Origin: Catajapyx aquilonaris
Taxonomy: Eukaryota
Reading direction: 5' to 3'
DNA: 38,628 bases
NCBI GenBank assembly: GCA_000934665.2
Contig: KZ538956.1
Coordinates: forward strand, 1-38,628
The notes under the pieces are model-generated. The model saw only the letters and a program-made list of their open reading frames with translations. It did not search any database and had not been told where the DNA came from. Both the position numbers and the translations under genes were made by a program. Each line of letters opens with the position of its first letter. The stretch's first letter is position 1. Shown here piece by piece: positions 1,902 through 38,628 of the stretch.

Positions 1902-4593
1902 TATAATGGAGAAATAATCTTGTAGGATCGCGTAGGATTCGCTTGGCCATCCGCAGAAAATGGTGGGTTGTAAAGTGTCTTTCGCGTCTTGTGCGAGTAT
2001 GCCTTCCGTTTACCGTGATTACAGAGTGTAAATTGCCCCGACCGGAACGTAATATACACTACTAACATCCCTGACACGCTAAACACTCTGATGGCTTGTC
2101 TTCTTGTGTGTTCCCGTTCTTGCCATGACATGTCGCTTGTTTGTTCATTGTCACTTGGAGCGGCCAGATCATTATTTTAGTCAGGTTGGGTCTGGCCTGT
2201 CCTACCGGTACGTGCAGCCCACGAAAGCTAGCGGTGGGTATAAGGTTGAAAAACGTAACTACTTGGAGATGCTGAGCAGGGCGGGGCTTAGGTGGGAAGC
2301 GACAAAGAAGGAAATACAAAGCATGACATTGACTTGAAAGAATGAGGGCATACCATCAGTAGTCCCTGCCGGTAAGGGTTTTTTTTCCATTCGAGAGACA
2401 TGGTATCAATATGTCTTTAACCTTATCAATATGCAAATAAACTTTTTTGGGGGGAAACTTGCTCTTCATTTATTTATCATAACCTGAATGTTGATGTCAT
2501 TTTAGGGCATTTTAACTGACATGCTTTTGACATAGTGTAGGTACTAAGACGGAATTTTAATTAGCTTAAGAGTTTTGACCCAATTCGGTATTTTGGGCAT
2601 TTCGATTTAAAAATTTAGAACAGCGATTAGAAAAAAAGTCATAAATACTGTACTCTACACCTTAAATTCGAGTTCAGACCTACTGAAAGCCGCACCTTCG
2701 TAACATTAAGAACACCTGCATGTAGTTTGTATCAGGTGGAAATAAAAATGTAACCAACCAATCCTGACGTTATCTTTCTTGTTTCGGTGATGGATTGGGC
2801 AGGTCAAGAAAACCAGAACAGGAATTTACGAGTGTTGCTAATGCTCAGTTTCGTGCGGACTACCGCGTTTACTTGATTTGAATAACGATCAGAAATTATC
2901 CTAGGGACATAATCTTGATGATTATATTACACCAGGTAGTCTGCGCAAGGTATCTGGTTACTGTATAATAAATTATACAGTGTAACACCACAAGTAGGCC
3001 TACTTGTACTTTCTGGTGTTTTTAAAAATTGCTAGGTGACGCAAATTTTTGGCATTGGCTTAGTCATACGTGTACATGGATATGTTTAGACTCTAGTTAA
3101 TTCACTACCGATTTAATTTGTATTTGAGGAAATGGAAAGACATTTGAGAGATATAAATACTGGTAACCCTATACACTGCATCGTGTCATTTTGATTTACT
3201 GGGCTTCTTTTTATTCAGGTTTGAAAGGTCATGTTGACATACAAGTGTATATAGGCAACCTATAAGAATGAAAAGTTGAAGTGATGAATATATTCACTTC
3301 TACTTTATCCTTGACTTTTGAGTAACATTTTGAGATATATCCATTTCGTGTGCCACGTGGAAGTTTCCGGCTGCTGAGCTTGTCAAGGGTATCAGGGGAT
3401 TAACTTCTTATTCGTATACATCGTATTTATGCAATATTCAAAGTTAATCAGGAGGAGAGGATTGAAACGATTTCATTTTAATGCTCATATGCATAATAAA
3501 TAACAAAGATGCGTATATGGGCAGATTATAGCTTCATCCAGAGAATGGTAGGCTACTGACTTTACAATTAGCAACAATGCCAGCAATGTAAGCCCTACCA
3601 TTTTTTATCTTTGTCCAAAATTTTGTTTCATAAGAATGAGGGAAGCACCTGGATTTTGATTGTTATTGTACAGGTACGGTATATTTGGTTTTTAACCAAA
3701 TATACACTATCCTACTGCATAATTATCGACTACTCTTATAGACTTTTAAATTTTTATGTGTCATTCACGGCAAATCCTTTGTGTGCATAATAGTACCGAC
3801 AAAAAATGAGGTCTGTACCGTGAGAAGCGGGAACAATTCCCGAGACGATTCACGATGGTCGTGCAAATAAGGGATGTCATGAAAGGAGAGCATTTCGTGT
3901 CGAAGAGTACCTTACGTTGCGCCCACATTGATTCCGAAACGCTAATTTAACTAACTGGCCTAGTGTCGATTAAGCCAGGCGTCATATTCCAGTATCAGTC
4001 GGTTGAAAATTTCTCAGCAGGTGGACTTTCCTGTTGGTTCGCATCGCCTGGCACGAATTTGCGAGTGTGGGATGATAGTCAAGCCAGACAAGGGAACAGG
4101 ATCCGAACAGGATCTTTTTCATTCAATTTGGGTCATCTCTTGGGAGCCTAATAAAGCAAGCGAGTCTTTGGGTCGGATGGCTGGGCCTTCTTCCTGGCCA
4201 CTCGGGGCAAGGTGATCTGCTTCCCAAGAAAAAAAAAAAATCTTAACCCTGAGAATCTGCCCCCTTCCACTGTACTGCACATGGGACGGCTGTGTAATAC
4301 GTCTTCCTCGGAAGGATAAGACTTCCCTTCCGAATTATTGTACTGTACCTTCATTGTTTCAACCACTTCTTGAGGCGGTGTTTGCATGCTCTGTGGTTCG
4401 ATGGGAATGATTTACAGGTGTTTATGCTGCATAAGCTCCTTTCCTTTTCCGTGGAGGCCACAAGTTTGATTTCTCTTGCAACCTGTATACTAGTAATGGG
4501 ATACTGGGTGTGGTGTACTCACAACTGGTACGGCATGAAACGAAGGCATAATGAGGAGGCTAGTTGTTGTCCCCGTAGCTCAGTGGAGGCAAA

Positions 4594-4830
4594 GTCCCCG
4601 TAGCTCAGTGGTAGAGTGCTCATTGCAACGAGAAGGTGAGAGCCTTCTTAGCGTGGTGAGAAGTCCCGGGTTCGAATCCTGGCGGGGGCGGGCACTTTCC
4701 ACTGAGGGACTCCGCTGGCTACCTCAAGCCATGAGTCCGGTCTCCCTCGGACCCTACGGCCAGCTCTGTCTGGTTCTCCTCGTCTCATCAAGAGACGAGA
4801 AGAAGGACATCCGTGCCTCCTCCTCCTCTA
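4594..4830 (+). mobile_element. tRNA-derived SINE (tRNA-like head 4594-4690)
   Basis: Acceptor stem GTCCCCG/CGGGGGC, A box TAGCTCAGTGGTAGAG, B box GGTTCGAATCC. The anticodon loop is enlarged and non-canonical. A GC-rich body follows and ends in (CCT)n; the 3' boundary is approximate. Confidence 0.7.
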
Positions 4831-5160
4831 AATGCAAGACAATGATTGCTGTTTATCCCGATTTTATTTGTTCCTAGTTTTCTACAGAGCAAACGGTGCA
4901 GACACCACCAGGAAGTGGCTCTTAGTGCAAAATGGACAGAAAAGTTTCTTTTCCTGACCACACACGCGTGCCAAGTGCTAACCCACGTGCAGTGTATCCC
5001 CCTTGAAAGATTCCCAGACGCAGAGAACAGTCTTGCTCCGAGTCTTCACGTGCTGGATGACGCCGAGTGCGAGCTCCTTTCATGACCTTTTCATCTTCTC
5101 TTGCCCTTTTCGTTTAGTTACTGTGCAAGTAACAATTCTGAATAGGCGAGCGTAAACTGC

Positions 5161-5256
5161 TTACAGGAATGTGGCATGCTGTGGCAAATGATCTCTGAGA
5201 AAGTTGTTCAGAAAGTTCAGAATTGTTCGAGCCGATGATCTCAGTGGTTCAGGTGT
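5161..5256 (-). CDS. PHD-bromodomain protein, exon 4 (terminal): TPEPLRSSARTILNFLNNFLRDHLPQHATFL*
   Basis: Acceptor tcctttacag| at 5257, phase 0, after a 61-nt intron. Amphipathic helix resembling bromodomain helix C. TAA at 5163-5161. Confidence 0.75.
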   Translation of the reverse strand, partial: TPEPLRSSARTILNFLNNFLRDHLPQHATFL

Positions 5257-5317
5257 CTGTAAAGGACAATGATAGAGTAAATCAATCAGTGATTGCTGAT
5301 GAGTCAGGTACCTATAC

Positions 5318-5437
5318 CTTGTTCATGGCTGTAACCTGAAGTGTATAGTTCACGTCTGCCAGGAATTCTCCCAGGCTGCTATACCAGTTGTTATGTAGCA
5401 TGTTCTCGAGTTGCCACATGGTTAAGGGCATCGCATC
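5318..5437 (-). CDS. PHD-bromodomain protein, exon 3: DAMPLTMWQLENMLHNNWYSSLGEFLADVNYTLQVTAMNK
   Basis: Acceptor ttttaattcaag| and donor AAG|gtatag; 120 nt, phase 0-0. Matches the bromodomain helix A/B pattern P-x-x-L...L..N.Y.S..EF.AD. Confidence 0.85.
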
Positions 5438-6299
5438 CTTGAATTAAAATGTTATAAGAACTCACAATTTTGATTGCTATACTGTATCAACACCTAATCA
5501 GTAACGCGTAAAGGTTCAGTGGAATGTCCTGTGAACTTTGGCTATAGTTTTGAATATAAGTTGCCATATTATTAATGAGCGTGTTCCATTGAACACTCAG
5601 GCTGTTGGCTGAACCTTCACTGAACATTCGTGAGTTTGTGTGGTACCAAGCGAATAACAAAATTAATGTATCGAGATGCCCTTCTGACGACTATTACTGT
5701 ATAAGTACGTATATAGCTTACGTATAGTATAAATGTTCACATATTCATGCAAAGTTGCTTTTCTTCATATACAACGATTTCTTAAAACAGGCTTTAGAAA
5801 CGAGACTGAATGCAGTGAACTGGTCTGGCACAAAATGTTTTTCTCATTACAGTATATTACAGTATAGGCACTGAAGGTATTGAGAACACAGTGAAACATA
5901 AAATATTGATATGCCATTTGACCCACTACAAAATGTATAATATATTATTATTCCATAGGCCTACTCGGGCCTACTCATCAGACTGGGGAAAATTTTTGTC
6001 TAGCTGTGCACACGTGCAGAAAGGTGTTACAGTACCGTATAATGGCCTTGGTTATCTTGCATAATTAATTCCGGTTGAGCCGATGCATTTTACGAGCAGT
6101 GGTCACATCCGTGAATGTAAGGGAACACTTATTTAGAAGCTCAAGTGTATTAAGAGACTTCATACAAGTGGAATCGGCGTTACGTATCACTGCATTCACA
6201 ATTTTACAGGAATACACCATGGGCTACTAAACAAATCTACTGAAGTAAGTGCAGAACTGTGTGGTATCATTGAATTGTGAGATAATATTTGATCATTAC

Positions 6300-6534
6300 C
6301 GAGAATGTATCTATGCCGTACCACAATGGGCGGCTGATAGTCTTGAGGAAGTAGATTTCCATCAAGATTTTGTGTGCCAGAAGGAGGTCAGCGGGGGGCA
6401 TTTGTTGGCCGGGACCCTCATCTTCATCATCATCTTGCACAAAAACGACTCGTCCATTATCAGTGTTTTCTTCCTCGGGATATGCGTTGATGATTTCTTG
6501 CACGGTGGTGCAGTGCAGACACTTCCAGTTTACT
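6300..6534 (-). CDS. PHD-bromodomain protein, exon 2 (end of PHD VNWKCLHC, acidic linker, bromodomain helix Z)
   Basis: Acceptor ttattatttgcag| at 6535 and donor TCG|gtaatg at 6299; 235 nt, phase 2-0. PPADLLLAHKILMEIY resembles TIF1/Bonus helix Z. Confidence 0.85.
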
Positions 6535-6538
6535 CTGC

Positions 6539-6539
6539 A

Positions 6540-6613
<74 letters not shown>
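6539..6613. repeat. (AAT)n microsatellite inside the PHD-splitting intron
   Basis: Perfect AAT run of about 25 units. Confidence 0.95.
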
Positions 6614-6772
6614 GTTTTGCAATACTGCCCTTCCCTCCCTCAAGACACAAAACGACGAATATATCAGTGGTGCATCGCTATGTTATTATCAGACACTCAT
6701 ATCCGTTGCGACTGGAATCCGGGAATATGGTTAGACTCAGGCTGGAAGATGTCAGAGATTGAAAAGACCTAC

Positions 6773-7142
6773 CCAAATATATCATCCTGGCTTCTGGGCA
6801 GATGACAATAGCCGTGGTAGCTGTTGTAGCAATGGGAGCATGTGCCGAGTATATCACCAGGAAACCCGCACATATAGCATACCGTCTGCTGTTGTAAGGG
6901 TTGCCGATAGTCAGGCGGTCCCCACTCCTGTGCAACTCTGGCTTCAAATGATCCAGCCCTGTAAATGCTACTTCCGTAGGTTACATGTTGCTCGACGAAC
7001 TGTGCCTGAGATGTCTCAGCCATTGAGACTTGGACAGCCTGAGGATATCTTGGAGCAAAAGCAAATGGGCTATAATCCTGGGTAAAGTGGCGACCTGCAT
7101 TGTAGTCATTGACCAGCGGATATGTGTTGAACATGCGGTACA
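6773..7142 (-). CDS. PHD-bromodomain protein, exon 1 of those visible (low-complexity N-terminal part plus most of the PHD finger)
   Basis: Acceptor ttttttcgcag| at 7143, first in-frame ATG at 7134, donor GG|gtaggt at 6772. Splicing to 6534 gives CYMC-x9-CSHC-x4-H-x2-C-HLP-x11-W-x-CLHC-type C4HC3 PHD finger (CYMCGFPGDILGTCSHCYNSYHGYCHLPRSQDDIFGVNWKCLHC). Confidence 0.85.
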
Positions 7143-7559
7143 CTGCGAAAAAATTGACACATTAGTACTTATATACATTCTTAAGGTAACGATTCAGCCA
7201 AAAACAGTTCGTGAAAAATCCGCTAGTTGGGCTCTGGTTGGTTTGAAAAAGGGATTGTAAAAAGGGTAAAATGAGACCCTCTCCTTCCTAGGGATGGTTG
7301 GGTGAGCAGACGACCTTCTGGGGAGGGAAGGGCCACAGGGCGAGTGTTGCGGATTAGTCACAGGGTGATAGATAAGGTTTGTTTTGAAAGCACAAATGAA
7401 TGAATTAAGTAGCTGCAGACCTGAAGGAATCGATATGTTACAGTCATTTTAGACTTCATGCAACATTTTTCCGTAGTTATTAATTTGATTCTCAATCAAT
7501 CTCAAGATCATCGAAATAATTCTCTGAAAAAGGGCTGATTTCCCGCTCGGCCAAAATTT

Positions 7560-7745
7560 TGGAATACGAAAGGGTAGGAGAAGGAATGGGAGAAACAATC
7601 CGAAAAACTGGTATAAACTTTGAATAGAAGAAGAATTGGTTTTTGTGGTGAGAGTCACAAGCATATGATAGATGGGGGAAAGAGTGGCAAGTGGAAGAAA
7701 AGGTTTTATTTGACCCTTTTCATCATGGAGGGGAAGGACTAGCGG
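7560..7745. repeat. Dispersed repeat, copy 1 (copy 2 at 8801-8986)
   Basis: Shared blocks GAAAGGGTA..GGAGAAGGAATGGGAGAAA.AATCCGAAAAACTGGTATA, GCAAGTGGAAGAAAA.GTTTTATTTGACCCTTT and GGAAGGACTAGC. Confidence 0.85.
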
Positions 7746-8157
7746 ACTAGCCTCAGTGAACTATTAGCAAGCACACAGCCGGGGACAAACATATACTGTA
7801 TATTTACTTTCATATATGTGGTATTTTCACATCTGGAGCAATATGTGAGAAGTAATTATGCTCAAAATGTTAGTAATCATAACTTCATAGCGAGGGTGCA
7901 GGGAAATGCCAAGTGACATTCAGATTATTTTTTGCCAATGTCTGATTCAGGATAACTTTGGGTTGAACTGTCTTTATGTCGGCAAAATACGATTTTTCAG
8001 TTCACCATAAAGTGTCCCATGTGCATGGAATGTTCATTTCCAGCGGAAACCGGAAGGTGAAAAATTAAAACGAAAGAGTTGTAAAAAATAGATTATGGTT
8101 TATTATCACATTGATGTGTGTATACGGTGGTGTTTGCAAAGAAAATTAATCAAACTT

Positions 8158-8415
8158 ATATATGAAGACCTCGGGGGAAGAACGATCAACATCCACTTTT
8201 TGTCAAAAATGAGTTGCATATCTCAGAAGATAGTTTCACTAGAATAGAATATGATGGTTTGGGCATGGTAGTGGAGTAATGATCATATGGCAGTATGCAA
8301 AGCACCGAAAGTGGGATTTACAATGGAACCTTATGGGCCTTTGAAATTTAAAATTGGAATATCTCAGTTTCACCTGAGGTGGACCTTGATCCCCCCCAGG
8401 TCTTCGATCATATAT
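8158..8415. mobile_element. Degenerate inverted-repeat element (old MITE)
   Basis: ATATGAAGACCTCGGGG..GATCAACATCCAC at ~8158-8197 is an imperfect inverted copy of GTGGACCTTGATCCCCCCCAGGTCTTCGATCATAT at ~8379-8413. Termini are unclear. Confidence 0.4.
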
Positions 8416-8800
8416 ATACTGAAATATACTACATGTCACACACGAAAATTGATAACTGATTATAAAATGCGGGTAAGAATTATTATAATTAATAAATTAA
8501 TACTCTTCATATGGTTTCATTGTTATTTGGACAAAAGTGTTCACATTGCACTTCTGATGAATAGTGGTACTTTTGTGTAAAAATGCAAATGAAATATTGT
8601 AGCAAACTTGACAAAATGGCCTTACAAAAAGCAGATGTACCATTGTAATAACATCATAGGGGTAGTACAGTATTAGTAATGTAATGTAACTACATTATTA
8701 CTAACTGACAAATATTTTCCTGGCAACGAATGGCCCCTCTCTAGTACCAGTATCTAAAAACAAGGAATTCTTGATCTAGCACAAATATTAGAACGTGTCT

Positions 8801-8986
8801 TGGAACACGAAAGGGTATAGGAGAAGGAATGGGAGAAATAATCCGAAAAACTGGTATAGAGTTTGAATAGAAGAATGGTTGATATGCATATGGTTAAACA
8901 TGGGGTGGAGGGATGCGCGGCAAGTGGAAGAAAATGTTTTATTTGACCCTTTCCCTGGTGGGGGTGGGGGGGGGGGAAGGACTAGC
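8801..8986. repeat. Dispersed repeat, copy 2, abutting a SINE insertion
   Basis: Collinear similarity to 7560-7745. Confidence 0.85.
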
Positions 8987-8999
8987 CCCAGGGTGTTAT

Positions 9000-9349
9000 A
9001 ATAATAATAATCATTGTGGGTAATGCTTTCACCCCTTACGGGGTATATCGCATAAACCTTTATTTTATTTTCAATTTTTTTTCTTCTTTTAACTTCCACT
9101 CCGGTGCGGTGCAAGGAATCAAGGAAATTGGGTAAGGATAGGGATTTTCGGGGAGGGGACACGAGTGCAAGTGCAATGTCGTTAAATGGGTCATGTGCAG
9201 TCCCCCAGGAGGTTAGGTTGCCAGACACCTCCAAGGTGCAGGTCAGAGACCCTCCTGACGCAGGTGAAAGGAAGTTCCCCAGGCGGGGATCGAACCTGGG
9301 GCCTTTCACTCAGCAAGCCGAGACGTTACCATCTCGGCCACCCCCAGGG
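9000..9349 (-). mobile_element. tRNA-derived SINE with 14-bp TSD and (TTA)n tail
   Basis: Minus-strand A box GGTGGCCGAGATGGTAACG and B box GGTTCGATCCC. (ATA)n at 9000-9011. Direct repeat CCCCAGGGTGTTAT at 8986-8999 and 9342-9355. Confidence 0.85.
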
Positions 9350-11507: not shown

Positions 11508-11538
<31 letters not shown>

Positions 11539-11539
11539 C
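11508..11539. repeat. (CAA)n microsatellite
   Basis: About 10 CAA units. Confidence 0.9.
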
Positions 11540-11761
11540 GAAAAAAAACAAAGCGGTTTGGAGGTGGCACAACCTGCTGGTATTCCATATTATTAACGTG
11601 CAGATGTCACCAAAACTTAATGACCATCTCAAATAATAATGCGCCCCAGGCAAACGTGACACAGTATTCTGGTTTTGCCAAGGAAACACCCTATACTCAG
11701 CACACGTAATGATACATCTTATGCGTGAGTTACAGATTGCCCTGTGTATAGGGTCTACTAT

Positions 11762-16003: not shown

Positions 16004-16084
<81 letters not shown>

Positions 16085-24526: not shown

Positions 24527-24807
24527 GTGGGTGAAAACATTGTATAAACAATGTGTTTACATTATTGCCCTGTTACACACTTGACATACCGGTATATACC
24601 ATGTGAAGCCTCTAAGTACATTCGTTCTTCGAGCCTTCTCTATTGTGTTTTGCTTCTTTTAATTTACTTTTTCATTTAAAATCATAGTGAGTCGATCTGA
24701 CAAAAATAATCGGTTGTCTTCCTTGTCTTTAAGTGCTTCATGTTACTTCTTTTGTCAATCTGCTGTAACTTCTCTTCTTATCCGACTTTCTGGGCTTCGC
24801 TCAACAG

Positions 24808-27800
24808 ATGGCCTCATCAATACCATTGTTGATGGAACCATCACTACCAGCCTGTATTTGGACAAGGAAAAGGGCAAAGGAAGGCCAACAGGACTTCTGA
24901 CCTCCACCTTGGGTACTTTTATCAACGCCGGTACTACTACGGAATATGCTACCAAAATCTACGGCACGTTTTTGGAGGGACAGTACGCCAAGATTGTTAG
25001 TACGACTTCCCGAGTGTTTTTCGTCATCCCTACTGGAAGTGCTTCGGACATGGTGGATCTGATCAGGCCAACGGGATTTGTTTCCAGCGTCGAATCTACC
25101 GAAGTCAAAAATTATGCTACCACATTGCACACCACCGAGTACTACCGGACCTTTATCGACGGCACGTATGCGCAGCTGGTATCCAGCTCTTCCAATGTCC
25201 ACTTTCCACCATGGTACACGGACCCAATCATTGCTTCCACTATTGGAACTCGTCAGTTTGATTCTGTTCATTCTGGTGAGGTGTACCCAACAGCACTTAA
25301 TGTCTTGTCGTCTCCAGGAAAGGACGCTGTTGTTAAAGGTTCCGTCGTGAATGAGGCTCACGGGCGTTTTAGCATCGTTCCTACAAAGGCTTCTGAAGTG
25401 CTGCAGACCAGTTCCGTGCAAAACATCCGAGTTGGTACAGGAGGTGAAGAAATCACACTCAGAGGTACCCGCGCAAAGCTGATCGCTGCAAATGGAGACC
25501 AATATTATAACGTATTCACGGGGAAGTATGAAAGAGGTGATAAAACGTATCAGTTCATCCTTGGAAACACAGTCCAGCAAGGAAAGGGCGGTGACCCCAG
25601 ACCTGTCACAATTGCGGGTCCTATACAAGTTGCAAATGGTGACCAGGCTAGTGTGGTGATACTGAAGGGAGACAGAGGTCTTGAAGTAGTAGTTCCAACT
25701 GCAGCGATCAAAGCAGGAGCAACTGCTGCCCCTGTTTGGTCTGGATCAGGATTGATTGACGGTCAGCCAATGGAAGGCGTGCTGATAGAGAGTTCCGAGG
25801 GCCATGACTCCATTGCTGTTCAAGGAGAGTATGGAGTCATTACGGGCGCAACACCTAGCATTGCCACAGTAGTCATTGACAAGAATGCACGCAGAGGAAG
25901 AGTATCCCTCAAGGTAGCAGCTGAATCTTCCACTTCTTCAGTGCCCAAGCTACTACGCGAGCACACTTCAGGCCGGAAGGTCCACCGAGGACAGGAGATA
26001 AATGATGTCAGGCCTAGTAAGCCAAGGCGTGCCAACCTGCCAACATTTACCGTAGGTCAGGATTTCTTTGGCACCAGTTCAGAGGAAGACAGTGCAGAGT
26101 CTAGCCCACCCAAAGACGAGGAAAAACGTACCGAAATTCGCACCTCATTCGTCAGAGACTGGAAATCTCGGAACCGTGTCAACACTTACAGAAAGGATAG
26201 GTCATTCCCCAATTTCCGAGTTGTCGACACAGAATTACACAATGAAGCGTCTGAAATGACAACCGTCACTTATGTGGGGTTTGTCGATTTCACTACCACT
26301 GTCGGAGACACAGTCATTGTCTTTATGCCTAGAACCCAAGATGTTGCTCAGGTAACCAAGGTCGCGCCGACGTCAGTGAAACAGAGCGTTCAAACAACGT
26401 CATTGGCCTCCTCGGTTTTACGAGAACAAAAGAAGAAAGACAATGAGCAGAAGGTGGTGTCGGGCGTAAAAACATTTATGTCCTACACCCCTGGAATGGT
26501 CACTCGTACTATAGTAGGGCACAAAATCAGTGTAGAAAAGGCAATTCCAACAGTGCAAGCTGGTGGAATCCGAGGCCCTAAAGATTTTCCAGAGGAAATA
26601 TCATCTCAGGTGCCTAGTTCTGACATGAACATACTGTTTAGTTCAGTGCTCGTATCTTCGGAAGAAGATAATGACTATGATTTGGTCTCGACAGACCTCG
26701 TCGATATTGCTTCTGCTTATGTGGAACCTACTGCTTCATTGACAGGCTTGACAGAATCTTCTGTCGTCAAAGAAACACAAGTTGTCGCATCTCCCTCACC
26801 GACTTTAGACGACGAAGTATATTCGACAGCGACAACTGTTGTTCTGAACACTGTCGATGCTTTCCCCACTGGACTTATTACAGCCATTGGTGGCCGCATC
26901 ATACATCGAGGAACAACAACTTTGTACACCTCGTTAATTTTCGGAACTTACATCGAGGGCAACTATGCACAAATAATTCACAGCACTTCTACCATTTACT
27001 ACCTAGTTGATGAGTCGTCCTACATAGCTCCTTCAGTGACCGAGTCCATTCAAATGACTTCTGTATTGGAAGCCCCAGCGACGACGAACAGTGCCTCTGT
27101 TTCCGATGCAGGCGTTACAACTGAATCCAGTTTTGAGTCAACTACTAAGGAAGATGCAGCCGATATAACCACAGTAGACATATTGCCACCTGCAGAACTA
27201 ACGACAGAGAAACATCTCACGAACGAAGTGGATGATGGGGTTACTTTGAAGCCTCGTCCCCAAGACGAGGATAATGAAATTATTGAAACAAGCAGAAGGG
27301 TTGGGTCAAAACCAGGGGCTCAGCTTATTGTTCTGGATGGAGACAAGAAAAATGAAATTAGTGACCAGAAAAGCACTGTAATATTTAGTCGCATACTGCC
27401 ATCTACAATATACAAGACATACACATATTTCACCACCTTTTTTGTTGAGGATGACGGCACAAGCACTACCTCAATAAAATCACGAGAGGAAATTTCAACC
27501 GAAGTTGGTGTGGTTACTTCCACTTATAGTTCAGTCATAGACGCGACAGCACCTGTAGAAGCATCACTAGAATCAACTGAAGCATCCGTGCTGAATAGAC
27601 AACAGAATATTCCAATCGCACCAGTGGAAGTAGTGCCAACTGCTGTCAACACTAGACTCCAGACATTGTATACGACATATACTTATCTCACCACCTACTT
27701 TGCGGATGACACCGTGAGCATATCAAGTAGAGAAGAAACGGTTACAAATATTATTACAGTAACTCCAGACATTGAAGCGACTGTAGCTCAAGCGGAGCCA

Positions 27801-30800
27801 CTGGTGTCACCTACCGCGACTTTGACTGAGCGTATTGAACCAGTGACTGGAGTCGGGGTGGGTAGGCCGACGACAAAGTTCTTCTCAGCTCCTGAAGAAG
27901 TGGAAAGTTCACCGACTCTAGTAGACTCTCTGACGAAATCTCTGGCAGACAATTTGTTGAAAACATTTTATACTACTTACACTTACTTCACAACTGTTTT
28001 TGTTGATGGAGAAACAAGCATCAATAGCCGTACTGATGTTTACACCAACATTGTGACACCTAGTAATTACCAACCAGAAGCCACGGAAGACGTTGTTATC
28101 TCACCAACAATCAGTGAGTTAGTATTAGACTCTTCCATTGTGAGTGATGAGGACGAAGAATCAGTTGTGTCTCAAGTTAAGCCTACAGACGCCCTTGAAA
28201 GCACATTTTACACTACGTATACATACCTGACAACTGCTTATAAGGACGGAAGTACTTTGTACTCAAGTTCTTTGGAGGTGTACACCAATGTTGTTGCTGG
28301 GGAGAAAACCGTGCGTTCGGGAATATACACTGATGACATTGCTCCTTCTGCTGCAGTGGATGCTCCTAAAGCTTCCCGTGATATTCTGAGGCAGCTAGAT
28401 ATTATAGATCAAATTCCAGGAGCATCCAGCGAGCTTGCAGCCAAAGTTACAACTGAGACAAGTGCTGAAAATGAAACCGACAGCAATTCAGACTCTAAAT
28501 TGTCCTCTTCATCATCCTCATCCTCTTCGGAAAAGGAAAAGCCGGAGGATGAAGATTCATTAAGCAAACCTACACCTCCGCTGAAAACTTTGTTCACAAC
28601 TTACACTTACTACACGACATACTTTCGAGAAGGAACGTCACAGATTGAAAGCAGACTGGACGTAGTAAGCACAGTAGTCTCGGATGAAGATCAACTCTCA
28701 ACATTTATTCCAATTGAAGCAACATTTCCGATCACATATTATACCACCTTCACATATTGGACAACGACCTTCAAGGATGGAAGTACACTAATATCTAGTA
28801 GAGAAGAGACTCAGTCAAATGTTGTTACACCTGGCGTGGATGCCACTGCTCATGAACAAGCGTCATCAAGCGAACTTGTAGTCGAGCCCACGCCGGTCCT
28901 AGAACTGACTACCTATTACACGACGTATACATATTACACCACCTCATACATTGGAGACGGAACGATCATTAGCAGCAGGCTCGAGACTTTAACCAATGTG
29001 ATTACGGGAACTGTTACTCCTTCAGGGAGAGCAGTCAGTGCCAGTCAAGCACCTGAACAAGGATTGTTAGACAAGCATGCAAGTCTACAAGACGCCAAGT
29101 CTAAAGACCAACCCACTGGCCTCTTGTCAACCATTGTCCAGAGCCAGGTAAATGATGGAACTACCACCTTGCTTTCTACTGATGTGTATGGGACATTTGT
29201 GGACGGAGTTTATGCACGAGTAGTCGAGAGTACGACACAAGTTGTAACACCTACCGCATCAGCAGAGGTCACGTTTCCAACAGGCCTGGTGTCATACAAT
29301 GCTGGTAAAATTGTCGACGCTGACGGAGCTACCACGACATATTTTACGAGTCGTGCCATTGGCACTTACATAGGAGTTCATTACGCTCAGATAATTGAAA
29401 GCACGACAAGCTTAGTTGTGAATCCATCCATCACAGTTGCCAGTGACAGCGACCAGTTCAAAACTGGCTTGGTGCGTTCAATTGACGGTTCAATTGTTCA
29501 AGGAGATAGCACAACTTTTTATGAGTCCAAAATCATTGGAACTTTTGTCGATGATCGTTATGCTCAAGTTATAGAGAGCACCTCTAGTGTGGCTATTGGT
29601 CCAACGTCAGTCGTAGTAGGCACTACAACAACTGCTACGGCAACACCAGATTCGCCCACTATCTCTACCATTGTCGCCCTCGACAGCTCTTTTGGAGATG
29701 GGGCTGAGACCGCTAAGGAAGAATCTAAGGAAGAGGAGCATGAAGAAGAAGACAAAGATCAAGATAATAAAGGATTTTTCAGTCAAGGACGAGGACGAGG
29801 TCGCCTTCCCTTTGGAAGGAGGACTTTCACTCCAGTAATTACACCCTTTGCTTCTCGGAGCAGATCGACCTTTCCTCCTAAGAGGAAGCCCACTAGTGCT
29901 ACAACCATTACGCGATCGGACTTGACACCAACAGTGACAGCCACTCCTGCAGCATCGGATGTGAGTCCCACTAGAGGGTTCTTCAGGAATCGTCCAGTAG
30001 GCGCCTCTGAATCTGCTGTAGTTCAGGGCTCTCGTCGATTTGGAAACAGATTCCGGTCATCCACTGCTGGTGCTGTTGTTGCAGCAACTTCTTCAAGTGG
30101 TGGGCGTTATGACAGTTCACGAGCTGGAGCCAGGTTTGGTAGCAGCAGTATTCCAATCAGCCCTACACAGTCAAGGCGTGGTGGGTTTAGGAACTCTGCT
30201 GTGAGAAGCACACAAGCTTCTCGTGCTAGCAGTGTTGCTGGTGCCGCTGGCGGAAGTTCCAGCAGGTTCGTTTTTAGATCACGAATCCGTCCAACGGCAT
30301 CCCTAAGAGACACACTCACAGTGTCTGCTTTTGTGACTGAGCCCACTATTCCTGATGAAACAGTTTACGAACAGCAGCAAGATTCAGACACTCAGACAGT
30401 CACGGAAGCTCTAGATATTGCCACGACTGAGGCCACTACGCCAATTAAGAATTCAAGATTCCGGCGACCACTTCCTAGATTGACCACATACTCATCTAGA
30501 GGCGGCTCAACAACAACACGACGACCGCCATCTGCCGCACGCTCGTACAAACAGGTGAATAGAAGCAGCACTACACCAGCTCCCAACAATCGTAGCGTCA
30601 ATCGGCCTCGTGCCTATTCGCCTCGCCCGAGACTCAACAGCTTGTTCCCATCTCGCTCATTTATTCAGCGACCAAGTCCTGAAGAAAGTGAGAAAGAAGA
30701 GACGGCGAAAAACGCTACGCAGGACTCCATCGATGACGGTAGCAATGAAGAATTTACTCAGGAGGCATCAGAAAATGCTTACACAGTAGCTGATATGGAC

Positions 30801-33800
30801 CCCTCGGAAGGAGAGGAAGAGACATCGTTAGATAGAGCCATTGCAGCAGCCGAACAAGAAAATTTGCCTGCACTCTCTCGTTCAGCCAGACAGACAGATT
30901 TTGGACAAAGGAGAAAGAGCAGTTCGTCGAGTTCTGGCAGTAGCAGATTTCGACGGCCAAGCAGTAGCGCTAGCAGAAAGAAAGATGATAACCCTCCAGA
31001 TCAGCAGAGGGAGAGCAGCAATAGCCAGCCATCTACCACCAGTAGCACTAGGTCCAGAGGGCAGTCATCACGCTTTCGCAGCCGAATCCAACCTACGTCA
31101 ACCTCTCGTCGCACACCCTTTACATTGAGTGCCAACACTGATTCAGGCAGGCGTTCTGCGGGCTCTTCAACATCTTCACCTTCTTTTCGTCGCACCACAA
31201 ATCCGGTGAGATACCAGCAACGTCAAGCTTCTGAAACAAAGCCTACCCGCTCACGATTCAGATCCTCATCTCGATACCGTGGGAGTAATTCAGCTGCTGC
31301 TACAACTGAATCAGCTCCTAGTCCTAGGACCAGTCGACGCTATTCCAATGGACGTGGGGGTGGGGGTGGTCGTTCTGCATCTCGATACAGGACAGACTAC
31401 GATGAGTACACATCTAAGCAGGAAACGTACCAGCTGCCCACGTTTGATGGAACCATTACAGTGACACATTACATTCCAATGGAAGCCACAATTCCCATTG
31501 TTCATGGGAAAGAAACTGAATACAGGCAAGTGTTAACCGCTAGCCCCAGCATCGAGATTCTTGGACCTGATCAGTACACAACTATTGAATTCGATGGCAG
31601 CAATGTTTTGTTAGCAAGTGAAATTACTGCTACACCGTCAATTGGTGTCACTGAAATTACCAGCTACCTGCTGCGCCCTTCGGAAACAACTGGAGTCATT
31701 TTTACACCTACTACTATCAGAGGCCGAAGGACGTCCTATTCCCACATTGTCCCCAGTACAGCATACTCGGTGGATCCCGTGGTGACAACATTAACAGATC
31801 CTCTGGCCAACAATTCTCCTCTCACTAACCTTTTGCTATCCCAGCTCTTGTTGGGAAACCTTGGTGGATTCCCTCCCAACCTAAACCCTCTCCTTGCTCT
31901 AAATAACCAGCCTCAAAGCCCAGGGACTCCCATGACCCTCTTGACCACTCTGACTACCACCTACGTTACTACCGTCACTGACCTGACATCAACTGTGCTC
32001 CCTATCACTCTGAGGGGAATGGCAATAAAAACCACCATTGTTGACAGCTCCGTTCACGTGATAACAGCTACAGAATTCATTACTGAGACCAGCATAGTCA
32101 CACCAACTCCAGCTGCTAACGATGCCATAAACACTCTGCTCCTTCAAGGTTTACTACAAACGCGATTGTTTCAACCACCACCGCTACCGCAACAACAACC
32201 TCTAATTCAGCCTCACCAGATCCAGCATTTGTTGCAACAACCTCCTCCTCCACCGCCCCCGCCGCGGGCGAAGAGTGAGAGAAGAAAAACTGCTCGAGAT
32301 CATGGAGTTGCCGTTGAGTTAGATGAATACCTAGATGAAAATTTGGAGTATAAACAAGATGCTCGCAGAGTTCAAACAAAACCCAAACCCAAGCAAGAAC
32401 CTGTAGTCACACGGCAAAAGCCTGAAACTAGTGTTGTCACTTTGTATGTGAGTGGTAGTAGACCTGGTGATTTCACTACCATTTTGTCTACCGTCACTTT
32501 GAGCCGAGATTCTGCCACCGCAGCAAGCATTGTCAAACGGAACGTTGAAGCCACAACAATCACACCTTCTGCACTGCCATCATTTATAGAAAGTGACGGC
32601 GTTGTTCACACTCTCCCGGACAAATATGACGATATTGACTTTTACGTCATGTCAGCAATAAATGAAGTGGATACGGGTGACCCAGCAACTGATTTGCCCA
32701 CCGAATCTTTAACCAGTGTCCAGAGCAGTCATTCGTTATATTCAAGTGTAGATGAAATTGAAACATCCACTCCAGTTTCCGAAATTGAAGATGATACTCG
32801 CCATTTTTTATCGGATGGCCGCGCTGAGCCTGCCCCACTCGCGCGGAAAAAAAGAAGTGCTCAACGGGGCCAAGGAATAAGTCGCCAAGACTCGGAAGAA
32901 GAAGACCATGTTGTAGAATCAGATTCTAGTGGCCGCATACAATCTAGACTACGAAGCAAAAAAGTTCAGATACTGAAGAAGCCTTCGGTGGCGGAGAGTG
33001 CTGAGAACGAGTCAAACAAGGTTAACAGTGACACCAACGATGAAAAAGTGGACAGTACTGCTGAAACGGAATCGCCCACACCGTCTCTTCGGAAGGGAAT
33101 TAGACGAGTAACAATTACTCGCTCACGCCCCTCTACGACTCTTGAAACTGAAAAGATACCTACACCAGTGTCCAAGAGACGAAAGATTATCGTGACCCGG
33201 ACTCGCACTGTACCAGCGAGATCTTTGGGGTTCTTAGATGGAGCTGCAGAACTACCTGTTGGTAGACGGGTGGCTCACACTCGTGCGTCAAACGAGGCGA
33301 CAAAAGGATCTAAGAGAAGAAAGATCGTTGTGACGAGAAGGCGACCTGTTACAAGCCCTAACATTGCAGCAACCCGAAGCAGAACTGTTGCTAGTGATGG
33401 AAAAGTTAAAGTCGTTGTTACTAAACGTCGTCCAGTGAAGTCTAGAGCATCTTTGGGCCGCATTGAACCAACTATTTCTGGGGCGACTAGGTCTGCCAGT
33501 GCCGACAGAACTTTGCTGACAGTGTATTCATATCTCTACACAGTGGTAAAGCCAGATGCCGAAGCAGTTACATCCACCAGGGAACTTACAGTCTCTGAAG
33601 TGGTAGGAAGAGACCAAGTACCTGAAGATATTAAGCCTACAGAGGCAGGCCTGTACACGATTGGCACTATAGCACCTACATCTAGATTAGGTGAAAGAGT
33701 GAACAACGGTGTTACAACCTTGGTCAATTTGGCTTCTGCAACACTGCTCAGATATGATGGAGGTGATGACATTGCATATCAAGACCGCGATAATTCTCGG

Positions 33801-35298
33801 CAGCAGCAAATTGAAGCTTCCTTCGATATAGTCAATGATCATAGACCTTCTCGTACTCGAACGCAAGCCCTTCCTACTAGAGTACGGAACATGGCCACAA
33901 ACCGTGGCACCGTAAGGTTCGATCCAGCTCGCCAATTAGAAACATTCACCTTAGTGCGACGACCAACCAGCAGAAGAGTGAATTCGGCCATCAGGACTGT
34001 GTTGAGAAATTCTGCATCACGTGTCCGCTTTAATGACGTAAGTGATTTGTCACAAGAGGACTTTGAATACGACTATGATGAGTATCCGCAAAGTTTGGCT
34101 GATTATTATGAAGAAGATGGTGAAGGAAACACGGAAGAACTTGATGTGGAGGACGAAATGTCAGTCACAGAAGCAGGTGAACACTCTGTAGATGACACTA
34201 CAGAAGCTGAGGAGAGTGAAGTCACAGTGCCTCCACAAGAAGATGATGTTAAGGAAGCCCCTATGGCAGAACACAGTCAAACAACAGTGAACCAAACAGA
34301 AGCGGCTGACACTAAAGAAGGAACTCTCGGCGGTGACAGGGAAGGCAGTCTTAAAGATGGAGAACAAGAAGCGTCAGGTGAATCTCCGCTGGAATCATCC
34401 CAAGAAAGTGGCGAAAAAGATGAAGCCGTTTTAGAAAGGACTGAGTATGAAGAAGAAGAACTGGAAGACGAAGATGAAGAAGGAGGAGATAAGGCGAGTC
34501 TAACACCCACTGCCAGTAGCGGACTCCGCCTGGTACGTCCAACTCGTCTTAACTTCTCACGTCGACCTGCTCCAGCACGTAGGCCATCGCCAGATTTCTT
34601 GAGTAGGCTGAACCGATTGCGGACCAGCAGCATTAGCAGCAGCGCACCTAGTCTTCTTCAACCTCGTCCCACTGCCACCTTGGGACGCGCCCCATTCAGA
34701 TCCCGCTTGTCCCGCGTCCAGGGTCCATTGTCCTCTTCCCATAACGTCCCTTCATCGGTGGTGTGGAAGACATTCACTACCACTACCAGTCTTCCACTGC
34801 ATGGGGACAGAACATACCTGACTTTGTCATTGCTCACCTCGACCATAACCACCCTTGTAGGAAGTGACCTCTCCTTGCTGACTGAATCTCCCGAATTTTA
34901 CAAGGTGGCTACCACTGCCCCTGTTCGCACCAACAGACCTTTTGTCAGTCCTACACGGCCTGCCAGTTTGCGGCCTACGTCCAGGCCTGCAGTCAGATAT
35001 CCGACCGTAGAAGACTTCAACGATGTTTCTCCAGAAACGACCGATCTTTCTGACGTTCCACCACCAAACGCTTTTACTCCAAATGACTTGGCTGACTTTA
35101 TCCCAGGGCCTTTATCTTCTCTCACTCTGTCTGACATTCCCATATACACGACTCGACTAGTCACAGAAACAAACTACAAGACATTGAAATATGTGGTCAC
35201 TCGTCTCAACGGGGACGAAAGCGACGTCACCACCAGTCAAGAAATTATATCTGACGTTGTGACCAAAACAGTGACCGAGCTCGTTACTCCAACCAAAG
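24808..35298 (+). CDS. Giant coding exon (10,491 nt, 3,497 codons) of a DUF4758-like repeat, Ser/Thr-rich mucin-like extracellular protein
   Basis: Lies within ORF 24687-35345. Acceptor ...cttcgctcaacag| at 24807 and donor AAAG|gtgagt at 35299, phase 1-1. Repeated PTGL..T..GT..YA.I..ST and YTTYTY.TT...SR.E..TN modules are typical of arthropod DUF4758 proteins (family assignment from recall). Confidence 0.9.
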
Positions 35299-35826
35299 GT
35301 GAGTTCACACCAGAAACTTCCCCATCTTCTGTAGCTGTGGTGTAAAAATAATGAACTATTAGCATTGTCCCCAACACGCATCATGAACAGGAACAGGGAT
35401 TTCCTTGATCTGCTGATTCATATTTTATCAGAAAAGGTTTTGGAGAAAATATTTAGGTTGCCATTTTATTGCATTCACTTATCTTCTCTAGTTCTATCAC
35501 ATATTCTTCTTTTTTGTCTACTCCAACTTTTCATGAACCTTCCAATTTTGTAAAAACTTCCACATGTTCTTGTTATTTATTCATGACAGACTCCATCATT
35601 ACATGAAGCTGTCTCGTAGCACGTGTTGGTATTTTGTATTCCATTTCACACTATCAAAATCTTTCAGTACACAGGGAATTTTAGGGTTATTATCTATGAT
35701 CAAAAAGTAAAGCAGTGTACTAATTTGTAGGCAACTACTTTTTACTGACAGTCTGAAATATGTAGCAAGAGCCAATGTTGTATGATCTATAATGATGTTT
35801 TGGTAACAATATCTTAATTTCCACAG

Positions 35827-36443: not shown

Positions 36444-36520
36444 TTATTGAGCAAAGGTGCGGTATTTATTTTGATTTGATCTGTATTAACTTATTATAAT
36501 CCGGAAAATAAATTGTCTAA

Positions 36521-36913
36521 GGGGTCGTCCATAAACCACGTGACCGTATTGGGGGGAAGGGGGGGGGTCTGCTGATATACCACGGTTGGTCACNNNNNNN
36601 NNNNNNNNNNNNNNNNNNNNNNNNNNNNNNNNNNNNNNNNNNNNNNNNNNNNNNNNNNNNNNNNNNNNNNNNNNNNNNNNNNNNNNNNNNNNNNNNNNNN
36701 NNNNNNNNNNNNNNNNNNNNNNNNNNNNNNNNNNNNNNNNNNNNNNNNNNNNNNNNNNNNNNNNNNNNNNNNNNNNNNNNNNNNNNNNNNNNNNNNNNNN
36801 NAAAAAAGGGGGGGGGGGGGGGTTCCAATGGATACCACGGTCGGTCACTGGGGGGGAGGGGGGGGGGGTCAAAAAGTACCCGAAAATCGGTCACGTGGTT
36901 TATGGACGACCCC
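36521..36913. mobile_element. PIF/Harbinger-type MITE spanning an assembly gap
   Basis: TAA|GGGGTCGTCCATAAACCACGTGACCG...CGGTCACGTGGTTTATGGACGACCCC|TAA (26-bp perfect TIR), with internal poly-G tracts and a repeated ATACCACGGT.GGTCAC. Confidence 0.9.
36594..36800. other. Assembly gap (207 N)
   Basis: Run of N. Confidence 1.
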
Positions 36914-38628
36914 TAATGTGAACCTGCCACTCTACGAATTCAGCAAATAATAATTGTCTTGCCGTGAATGTTTTGTGAATTGCTGCAAGTTACACCTTCG
37001 ATATCCTAAGTCTAGTAACTTTATCCCAGCTATCACATGGTTTATTATACAAGAAAACTTCAGATTGTAAGGTTCCTCTAGCTGTCTGTGAAAGTATACA
37101 ACAGAATGTAAAACCGTAACTCGTCATCAATCTTATCATACACGCAACCTGACGCAACGAAGGAAAATTCGAATTGAAAGATGTTGGCATCCTGTGCACG
37201 GGTAGGTTGGCAACACTGAAAATCGCTAGATGGCACCAGGTGTACTTACTTTTTGACTGTGTATGTAGTCACTGTGCCCTCTGCTCGCCCCTAGGTTGAC
37301 CCCTGGGTCGGCCCCTGGTCGTCTGAACGCCCATTCCATTTTCCTCGCCATGCCGGAATGAAGTGTAGAGAGGGTAATGGTTAGGGTGGGGGAGGCAACC
37401 ATGTAGGGGACCCTGGATGGCACCAGCTCATGCGGTCGCGTGGTCCGACATGGGCGGCTACTGGTATGATGCTGTACAGTACAGTGCAACTCATGTGTCA
37501 GATGGTATTGTACAAGTCCGGCAACATTGAAGGCAAGAGCCGGGAAATAGACTGGCATTGTGTAGATCCATAGGACCTGTTGGGAACAGCTAGAGTGTGG
37601 AAAAGCTTACTTGTTGATAGGACAATAATATTAAATGTGTTAATGACGGGTGATTGTGTCCAAATACCCCATGTGTTTCAGAATGTAGCTCGCATCATAT
37701 CATATTTTTGTGTGTGCAAATTCTTGCTTTAGTTGACTTACCATATTTGTATAAATACTGGTATGTAGGCCTATGTAGCATTGGAAAACCTGTTAAATAT
37801 TTACAGTAGTGTGTCATTGATACACTTGGAGACAAGGGGGTAATAATGAGTAGAATTGAGCATCCAAAGATTTTCACTGATACAGATGTGAGCTCAAGTA
37901 TGAAACACAGCATAATGCTCAGCTCCAGATGCTGTGAAAGTTTGTGAGCCTATACAAACAAAATAACAGAATGAGGAACCCTACTTTCTGAATAATTCTT
38001 CTTGTGTAGTTGATAAACATTTTAAGTGCAGGCCTTCTGCAATGTAGGCTGGGAAAAGGCTTTATAATCATGTCAGGTGTAAATGGCCTTTACTTTTGGT
38101 TTGCCTGGTCTTGCAAAGGCCTTCCAGCATATTATGTCTGTCTCTAGTAAGTCAGCAGTTTGAAAGCTGGATAAAATGAAGAGTCAATTTAGGAGACAGT
38201 AATAATTCTGCATATCTAATAGCCAATGTGAGGGATTGTAGTGATTATTCTTCAGAATAAAATATCAAGTCATAAAAGGTATTTTTACATGGGCTGTTAT
38301 AAAAATAATGTCATGGTGCATATGATTTTACTTGAAAACCTGAACACTTATAATGTTGCACTCACTGCATTTCTAAAGGGGTCATTGAAGTACTTTCTGG
38401 AATGGTATGCAGATAGTATGCCAATCCCTTGAAGAAGCTAGGAAAAATAGCAATGTATGATACAGTGCTGGACATATTAGCCGTCGCTGAATGTTTTTTT
38501 CCGGCGGCGGCGGCGTTACCTGGCAACCCCGTCCGGCGGGCCAATTCAAACATCAGCCCATGGAGAGCGCTTCCATTGTTGCCACTGTTTACAAATCGAG
38601 TGAGTGACGCGGACGACCCAGCGGCGGG

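Follow-up and report, generated by a model that had tools for sequence, protein, structure and literature searches.

Gene model

This report concerns a small gene model on the minus strand of a Catajapyx aquilonaris contig (KZ538956.1, assembly GCA_000934665.2), of which we analysed a stretch of 38,628 nucleotides (nt), here called the window. At 5161-7142 four predicted exons encode a protein with a PHD finger, an acidic linker and a tail that may be a much-altered bromodomain. The minus strand was read from 4900 to 7500, and the four proposed exons were translated by their coordinates and then joined by script (Table 1). The joined exons amount to 821 nt, in which the coding sequence from the ATG at 7134 occupies 813 nt, that is, 270 codons plus the TAA stop. 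The first-pass annotation had claimed four exons with GT-AG sites and phases of 2, 0 and 0, which splice into 813 nt and 270 residues without stops; a PHD finger that is complete only after splicing over an intron with an (AAT)n repeat; and an N-terminus rich in Gln, Tyr and Pro. Every checkable number was reproduced by the script splice, zinc ligands 1 to 6 of the PHD finger lie in exon 1 with the closing W-x-C-x2-C in exon 2, and the first 85 residues are moderately rich in Gln, Ala, Tyr and Pro (11, 9, 7 and 7 residues, respectively).

The donor contexts, G/gtaggt, G/gtaatg and AG/gtatag (the slash marking the exon end), are reasonable, and the acceptors, (tta)n-tttgcag, ttaattcaag and ccttt-acag, are preceded by pyrimidine-rich tracts. 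The exons have a GC content of 44-49%, against 31-38% in the introns. Three identical DNA contigs of one sample, perhaps the window's own source, cover 4800-6535, with zero variants and zero joints; a further run yielded nothing there. We consider that the gene model is sound and its architecture unusual, and that the four exons probably constitute a genuine small intron-containing gene of an animal genome.

Table 1. Predicted features of the minus-strand PHD finger gene, in the order of transcription (positions are those of the window)
Feature	Position	Strand	Remarks
TATA-box-like TATATAAG	7168..7175	-	sole TATAWAWR within 465 nt upstream of the ATG
Initiator-like GCAGT	7142..7146	-	A at 7144 sits 31 nt past the first T of TATATAAG
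Exon 1	6773..7142	-	residues 1-120 plus 2 nt; ATG at 7134-7132; 85-residue N-terminus, then PHD ligands C1-C6 (6805-6879)
Intron 1	6535..6772	-	238 nt, GT-AG, phase 2, GC 0.31; contains (AAT)24.7 at 6540-6613
Exon 2	6300..6534	-	closing W-x-C-x2-C (6510-6527), acidic linker, proposed helix-Z part
SIM-like stretch	6417..6449	-	VVFV (residues 150-153), then Q-DDDEDE; in the PHD-bromodomain linker
Intron 2	5438..6299	-	862 nt, GT-AG, phase 0; cassette exon sought inside, none convincing
Exon 3	5318..5437	-	40 residues; putative bromodomain core: end of ZA loop, helix A, AB-loop Tyr, helix B with Asp
Intron 3	5257..5317	-	61 nt, GT-AG, phase 0
Exon 4, coding part	5161..5256	-	proposed BC loop and helix C; TAA stop at 5163-5161
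AATAAA, candidate polyadenylation signal	4863..4868	-	292 nt past the stop

The PHD finger and the N-terminus

Exon 1 contains the series C-x2-C-x9-C-x2-C-x4-H-x2-C and exon 2 the series W-x-C-x2-C, with ligands 6 and 7 separated by 15 residues; the spliced product has all eight ligands of a C4HC3 finger at canonical spacings, and two residues before the seventh of them stands a Trp. The exon-1 series, the core pattern, turns up only once when the 38.6-kb window is searched in six frames. The finger is of the H-x2-C-H-x-P type, as in TIF1, AIRE and SP100, and when exon 1 was searched against the sequences of the PDB, all 20 matches at E<=10 were PHD fingers, with KAP-1/TRIM28 (1fp0, E 9.6e-4), the second PHD finger of AIRE (2lri, 0.0046) and TIF1-beta (2ro1, 0.0068) at the top and TRIM66 and SP100 (E 1.3) lower down. 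The alignment with KAP-1 has T-[VI]-C-x-[VM]-C-x2-P-G-D and C-H-L-P in common. Atlas features for residues 70-120 point, as a lead only, to PHD clusters at 0.89.

In Pfam, exon 1 alone reached the PHD model (PF00628) at 14.9 bits (E 0.027, positions 1-33 of 47), short of the gathering score of 24, and zf-HC5HC2H at 16.7 bits (E 0.0088), likewise below its cut-off; these low scores are a point against us, yet they are to be expected, because the intron cuts the domain. Judged by its ligands, the C4HC3 finger is complete and belongs to the KAP-1/TIF1/AIRE/SP100 type, and the TIF1-type signature with which the first-pass annotation had credited it has held up, the best solved match being KAP-1/TRIM28.

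Acidic residues ahead of the first Cys are a mark of PHD fingers that read H3K4me0, and a cage Trp is a mark of those that read H3K4me3. The PHD finger described here has no acidic residues ahead of its first Cys and no Trp two residues before its His.

For the 85 residues that precede the PHD finger, no known domain or similarity was found in Pfam or in the protein searches made with exon 1. The whole product, of 31 kDa, is acidic (isoelectric point 4.9) and has four lysines in all.

The linker and the bromodomain-like tail

Between the PHD finger and the tail lies an acidic linker of 35 residues, in which VVFV, the sole hhXh/hXhh match in the protein, is followed by an acidic run. SUMO-interacting motifs (SIMs) have as their consensus a core of hydrophobic residues with acidic ones beside it, which the stretch fits, and it also resembles the SIM of PML (PMC8616421). 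Likeness to SIM-bearing SUMO effectors such as PML, in which VVVI is joined to a run of Ser and acidic residues, consists in an hhXh core and a following acidic run, and is at the level of the motif only. On this pattern the stretch may work as a SIM, although the consensus is degenerate by the same paper's own account. An HP1 box (PxVxL), an LxxLL nuclear-receptor box and a psi-K-x-E SUMO site were looked for by eye in the four exon translations, and none was found.

The first-pass annotation had a bromodomain following directly upon the PHD finger. Of this claim the PHD finger stands, while the bromodomain is seen weakly, as a partial Pfam match below threshold and in exon 3 only: scanned alone, this exon matched PF00439 at 17.4 bits (E 0.0043, positions 36-65 of the 84 in the model), and the gathering cut-off is 21.7. 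To judge such a score we have the Pfam scans of the window's other open reading frames (ORFs), which comprised 105 of the 142 stop-to-stop ORFs of at least 70 residues (the giant ORF described at the end of this report was scanned separately, and the 36 ORFs that overlap it at 24804-35417 were left out) and 111 minus-strand ORFs of 35-69 residues between 7100 and 24700, giving 216 upstream and flanking control ORFs in total. Some Pfam family was matched at E<=0.01 by 5 of the 105, so that an E-value of around 0.004 is no rarity if matches to every family are admitted. The bromodomain was, however, named beforehand as the family to test, which brings the per-model probability to about 1.7e-7, and neither PHD nor Bromodomain was matched by any of the 216 controls.

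Exon 3 has a Tyr at its residue 19 and an Asp nine residues further on, at 28. This is the spacing of the AB-loop Tyr and the helix-B Asp to which it is hydrogen-bonded, Y119 and D128 in the first bromodomain of BRD4, as described in the structural survey of Filippakopoulos et al. 2012 (PMC3326523). The same paper names TRIM28 and PB1(6) as the only human bromodomains with unusually short ZA loops, and the short loop agrees with TRIM28 being the family of the best PHD match.

Other findings on the tail weigh against its being a bromodomain. No Pfam bromodomain match came from exon 2, from its last 36 residues (the proposed helix Z) or from exon 4; no bromodomain of the PDB was matched by exon 2, by the helix-Z part, by exon 4 or by exon 3, the last of which gave eight weak phmmer matches; and for exon 3 the Atlas offered no usable match. 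The segment from helix Z to P-L-T is about eight residues shorter than the Pfam model implies, and it has no element resembling P-D-Y-Y; the conserved Tyr (Y97) that heads the ZA-loop helix was not found, and where P-phi-D is expected before helix A exon 3 reads P-L-T. When the helix-B pattern is laid on without gaps, V, N and K fall at the places of N135, Y139 and N140 of BRD4(1), and the acetyl-lysine pocket is for this reason probably non-canonical: the docking Asn comes one position early and a Lys takes its place, although with a one-residue deletion the Asn fits, preceded by Met where Tyr or Phe is the rule at the start of the BC loop.

A micro-exon that would restore the ZA loop was sought in intron 2, where 21 in-frame AG...GT candidates were found, none of them bromodomain-like. 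Reading through the exon-2 donor (6270-6299, minus strand) gives ten in-frame codons with K-Y-Y-x-x-I and then a TGA. The motif resembles the P-D-Y-Y-x-x-I of the lost ZA loop, and may be a coincidence of AT-rich sequence or the trace of a once longer exon. Taken together, these data weakly suggest that the C-terminal tail is a bromodomain that has diverged strongly, its ZA loop being shortened and its flanking helices unrecognisable.

Extent and reality of the gene

The first-pass annotation had also held that the gene stands alone, with no RING, B-box or coiled-coil exons upstream. This claim stands as far as the domains are concerned: in the Pfam scans, which took in 17.5 kb upstream, no RING, B-box, coiled-coil-associated, SAND, HSR/CARD or other credible domain was found in any of the 216 ORFs, and regular expressions for RING, B-box1 and B-box2 found no match in six frames of the window. 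It is also helped by the TATA- and initiator-like pair at 7175 and 7144. TATAWAWR has a background of 0.22 per kb per strand over the whole window, and the TATA/CAGT pair has the consensus and the spacing of the usual TATA-initiator arrangement. We think that the gene probably has its own TATA/initiator promoter.

What the claim leaves less firm is the 5′ end. The putative promoter bases make an equally good splice acceptor (ttttttcgcag/TG) directly before 7142, the frame is open upstream as far as 7161, and a 5′ untranslated region (UTR) of 10 nt with C at -3 would be unusual. Because of this acceptor-like stretch and the open frame, the 5′ end is not settled from sequence alone. On balance we incline to a gene that stands alone, and think an upstream coding exon unlikely.

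A larger gene is the alternative that survives best, although we regard it as improbable. On this view a multidomain gene, TIF1/Bonus-like or of another kind, would end in the four exons as its 3′-terminal PHD-bromodomain cassette, and the ATG at 7134 is internal; a long intron would part them from the exons for the RING, B-boxes and coiled coil (RBCC) or for other domains, which would be situated outside the window or on the far side of the giant plus-strand gene. The strength of the acceptor and the frame open to 7161 speak for this, as does the best PHD match being a TIF1 protein; moreover, the cassette is C-terminal in all known TIF1 proteins, according to one study (PMC10672805). The searches for upstream RBCC domains, with no match among the ORFs or in the six frames, speak against it, and so does a TATA box correctly spaced from the initiator-like CAGT. 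In addition, the 85 residues before the PHD finger resemble nothing known, and a larger gene would require an intron of more than 17 kb, when the other introns measure 61-862 nt.

It is decidedly unlikely, to our minds, that the locus is a silent relic, that is, a pseudogenised TIF1-like fragment whose frame is open by chance or youth and from which no protein is made. Such a relic would be in keeping with the eroded state of the bromodomain (a short ZA loop, a docking Asn that is off register, and no recognisable helix Z or C), with the read-through at the exon-2 donor if its K-Y-Y..I is what is left of a longer exon, and with the want of relatives, which is also a point against the gene as we read it: word-indexed protein searches with exon 1 and exon 2 (E<=1) found none, and neither did scans of metagenomes and viruses. 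A single match of exon 1, P0005, was returned by phmmer from 1.84 billion representatives (E 6.6e-4); it is an Ala-rich protein of 1025 residues with only weak PHD-like Pfam matches, and we rejected it as an orthologue. By tblastn, no second copy of the spliced protein is present in the window. The codon test, trained on the neighbouring giant ORF, can be read both ways, since the in-frame score of -0.14 lies 0.5 bit per codon above the -0.65 of both other frames but is equalled or exceeded by 13 of 79 control ORFs, and is to that extent undistinctive. Against a relic we set 270 codons across four exons with no stop or frameshift, all six splice sites intact, a PHD finger that keeps its eight zinc ligands and its Trp, and the clear contrast in GC between exons and introns.

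That the PHD gene is real but its last 105 residues are no bromodomain, the exon-3 match having fallen by chance on a helical segment, is very unlikely: only 30 of 84 model positions are matched, below the cut-off, the PDB and Atlas searches yielded no bromodomain and chance E-values are similar in the controls, yet those control matches hit arbitrary families, whereas Bromodomain was predicted beforehand and follows this type of PHD finger in TIF1 and SP100, and the match spans the most conserved part of the domain and keeps the Tyr-Asp spacing. The distance from the PHD finger to the helical region, about 38 residues, also argues for a bromodomain, being one that we take to fit TIF1 cassettes.

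Comparison with known PHD-bromodomain proteins

The reading that we prefer, of a small stand-alone gene with a PHD finger and a diverged bromodomain, invites comparison with KAP-1/TRIM28, which it resembles in the best solved PHD match, in a putative bromodomain directly after the PHD finger and in an unusually short ZA loop (for TRIM28, PMC3326523). In KAP-1 the PHD finger recruits Ubc9 and lysines of the bromodomain are SUMOylated, whereupon SETDB1 and NuRD are recruited (PMC6660772). The Catajapyx protein differs from KAP-1 in that searches for a RING, B-boxes, a coiled coil and the PxVxL HP1 box found none of them, and in that P-G-D is separated from the third Cys by one residue more. Auto-SUMOylation of the bromodomain in the manner of KAP-1 is also doubtful, because the bromodomain part has three lysines and none is in a psi-K-x-E context. 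Since TRIM28 is a vertebrate paralogue, the likeness to it may be convergent.

With Bonus and the other bilaterian TIF1 proteins (TRIM class VI, or subfamily E, with TRIM24/28/33/66) the protein shares the C-terminal order of a PHD finger and then a putative bromodomain, a likeness of domain order; it is unlike them in that the RBCC by which they are defined was not found in the window. Two studies place the TIF1 family across Bilateria, with one member in Drosophila (PMC3503706; PMC10672805). In the second of them, Bonus appears as the single TIF1 protein of insects, with repression that is SUMO-dependent via Su(var)2-10 and a conserved N-terminal SUMO site (PMC10672805).

SP100, SP140 and AIRE have a PHD finger of the same C-H-x-P type, AIRE PHD2 and SP100 being among the PDB matches, and SP100C and SP140 also have the PHD-bromodomain tandem. 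They differ from our protein in having SAND and HSR/CARD domains, neither of which was found within the window by the Pfam scans. To our knowledge, the SP100/SP140/AIRE family is confined to vertebrates. Because RBCC and SAND/HSR were not found in the window, the protein falls outside the TIF1/TRIM and SP100 families by their definitions. A stand-alone invertebrate PHD-bromodomain protein was not met with in the titles and abstract openings of the literature found, which is no proof that none is in print.

Origin and proposed function

The gene most likely arose from the PHD-bromodomain cassette at the C-terminal end of a TIF1-like gene, a grouping to which the ranking of the PDB matches points. 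We propose that its product would consist of four parts, namely the domain-free N-terminus, the PHD finger, the acidic SIM-like linker and the diverged bromodomain, and would act as a free nuclear adaptor module for chromatin or co-repressors. A classical reader of H3K4 methylation or acetyl-lysine is disfavoured, because the PHD finger has neither the acidic residues nor the cage Trp, the tail has no ZA-loop Tyr element and the docking Asn is off register. Instead, the PHD finger and bromodomain might act between proteins as those of KAP-1 do, as a SUMO-dependent platform on which SUMOylated partners would be bound via the SIM of the linker. Without RBCC the protein could neither dimerise nor be recruited like Bonus or KAP-1, and could consequently compete with a full-length TIF1 for its partners. 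We infer the promoter, the origin, the SUMO binding and the competitor role from the features described above; for the whole of this reading, a real small gene with a TATA/initiator promoter, PHD finger, SIM-like linker and diverged bromodomain, encoding an adaptor derived from a TIF1 cassette, we see the chances as evenly balanced.

A bolder version, which we offer as a long shot, would make of the protein a ‘mini-KAP-1 tail’: an autonomous PHD/SIM/short-ZA bromodomain protein of an invertebrate genome, with a promoter of its own, truncated from a TIF1 cassette and lacking RBCC, which would have ceased to read histone marks but bind SUMOylated chromatin proteins via the SIM of its linker, perhaps bind Ubc9 via its PHD finger, and act as a soluble competitor or as a minimal SUMO E3 or adaptor on repression of the Bonus/SetDB1/NuRD type. 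If this were true, the SUMO-linked logic of PHD finger and bromodomain, reported so far for vertebrate KAP-1, would have been invented a second time and independently.

PHD-bromodomain cassettes are normally the effector ends of large scaffolds, such as TIF1, SP100, BPTF and BAZ, and one that was free, had a promoter to itself and carried a SIM between its two domains would lend itself to the role of dominant-negative or adaptor in the Bonus pathway. What an atypical bromodomain with a short ZA loop does when it does not bind acetyl-lysine could also be studied on it as a compact model. At present the value of this unannotated, orphan-like gene model is that of a lead rather than a result.

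Neighbouring features

The 3′ flank of the gene (4000-5160) has a GC content of 50%, against 38% in the 5′ flank (7143-9000), and contains several ORFs of 80-110 residues, on both strands, without a Pfam match; it could be a long 3′ UTR or some other unrecognised feature. About 170 nt beyond the candidate polyadenylation signal, on the strand opposite to the PHD-bromodomain gene, lies a match to the transfer RNA (tRNA) family of Rfam (RF00005, 4594-4690, plus strand, 45.7 bits), which ARAGORN reads as a tRNA-Leu of 97 nt with anticodon GAG. Either a tRNA gene, its variable arm being long or an intron being present, or a repeat derived from a tRNA could account for it.

The giant ORF is an uninterrupted frame of 3560 codons on the plus strand (24663-35342), rich in Thr, Ser and Val, with its first Met at codon 130. 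Ten stretches of it match Pfam DUF4758 (‘putative sperm flagellar membrane protein’, E 1.4e-106), a domain for which a full-text literature search found no paper, and the frame may be one giant exon within a larger gene. This neighbour and the 61-nt intron 3 are suggestive, though no more than that, of an arthropod host. Further along, a run of 208 N at 36594-36801 marks an assembly gap, and the ORFs at 36489-36950 are artefacts of it. The window also contains two perfect (AAT)n microsatellites, of 27 units at 16004-16084 and of 24.7 units at 6540-6613, the latter within intron 1 of the PHD-bromodomain gene, and an (ACA)14 run at 11508-11551.

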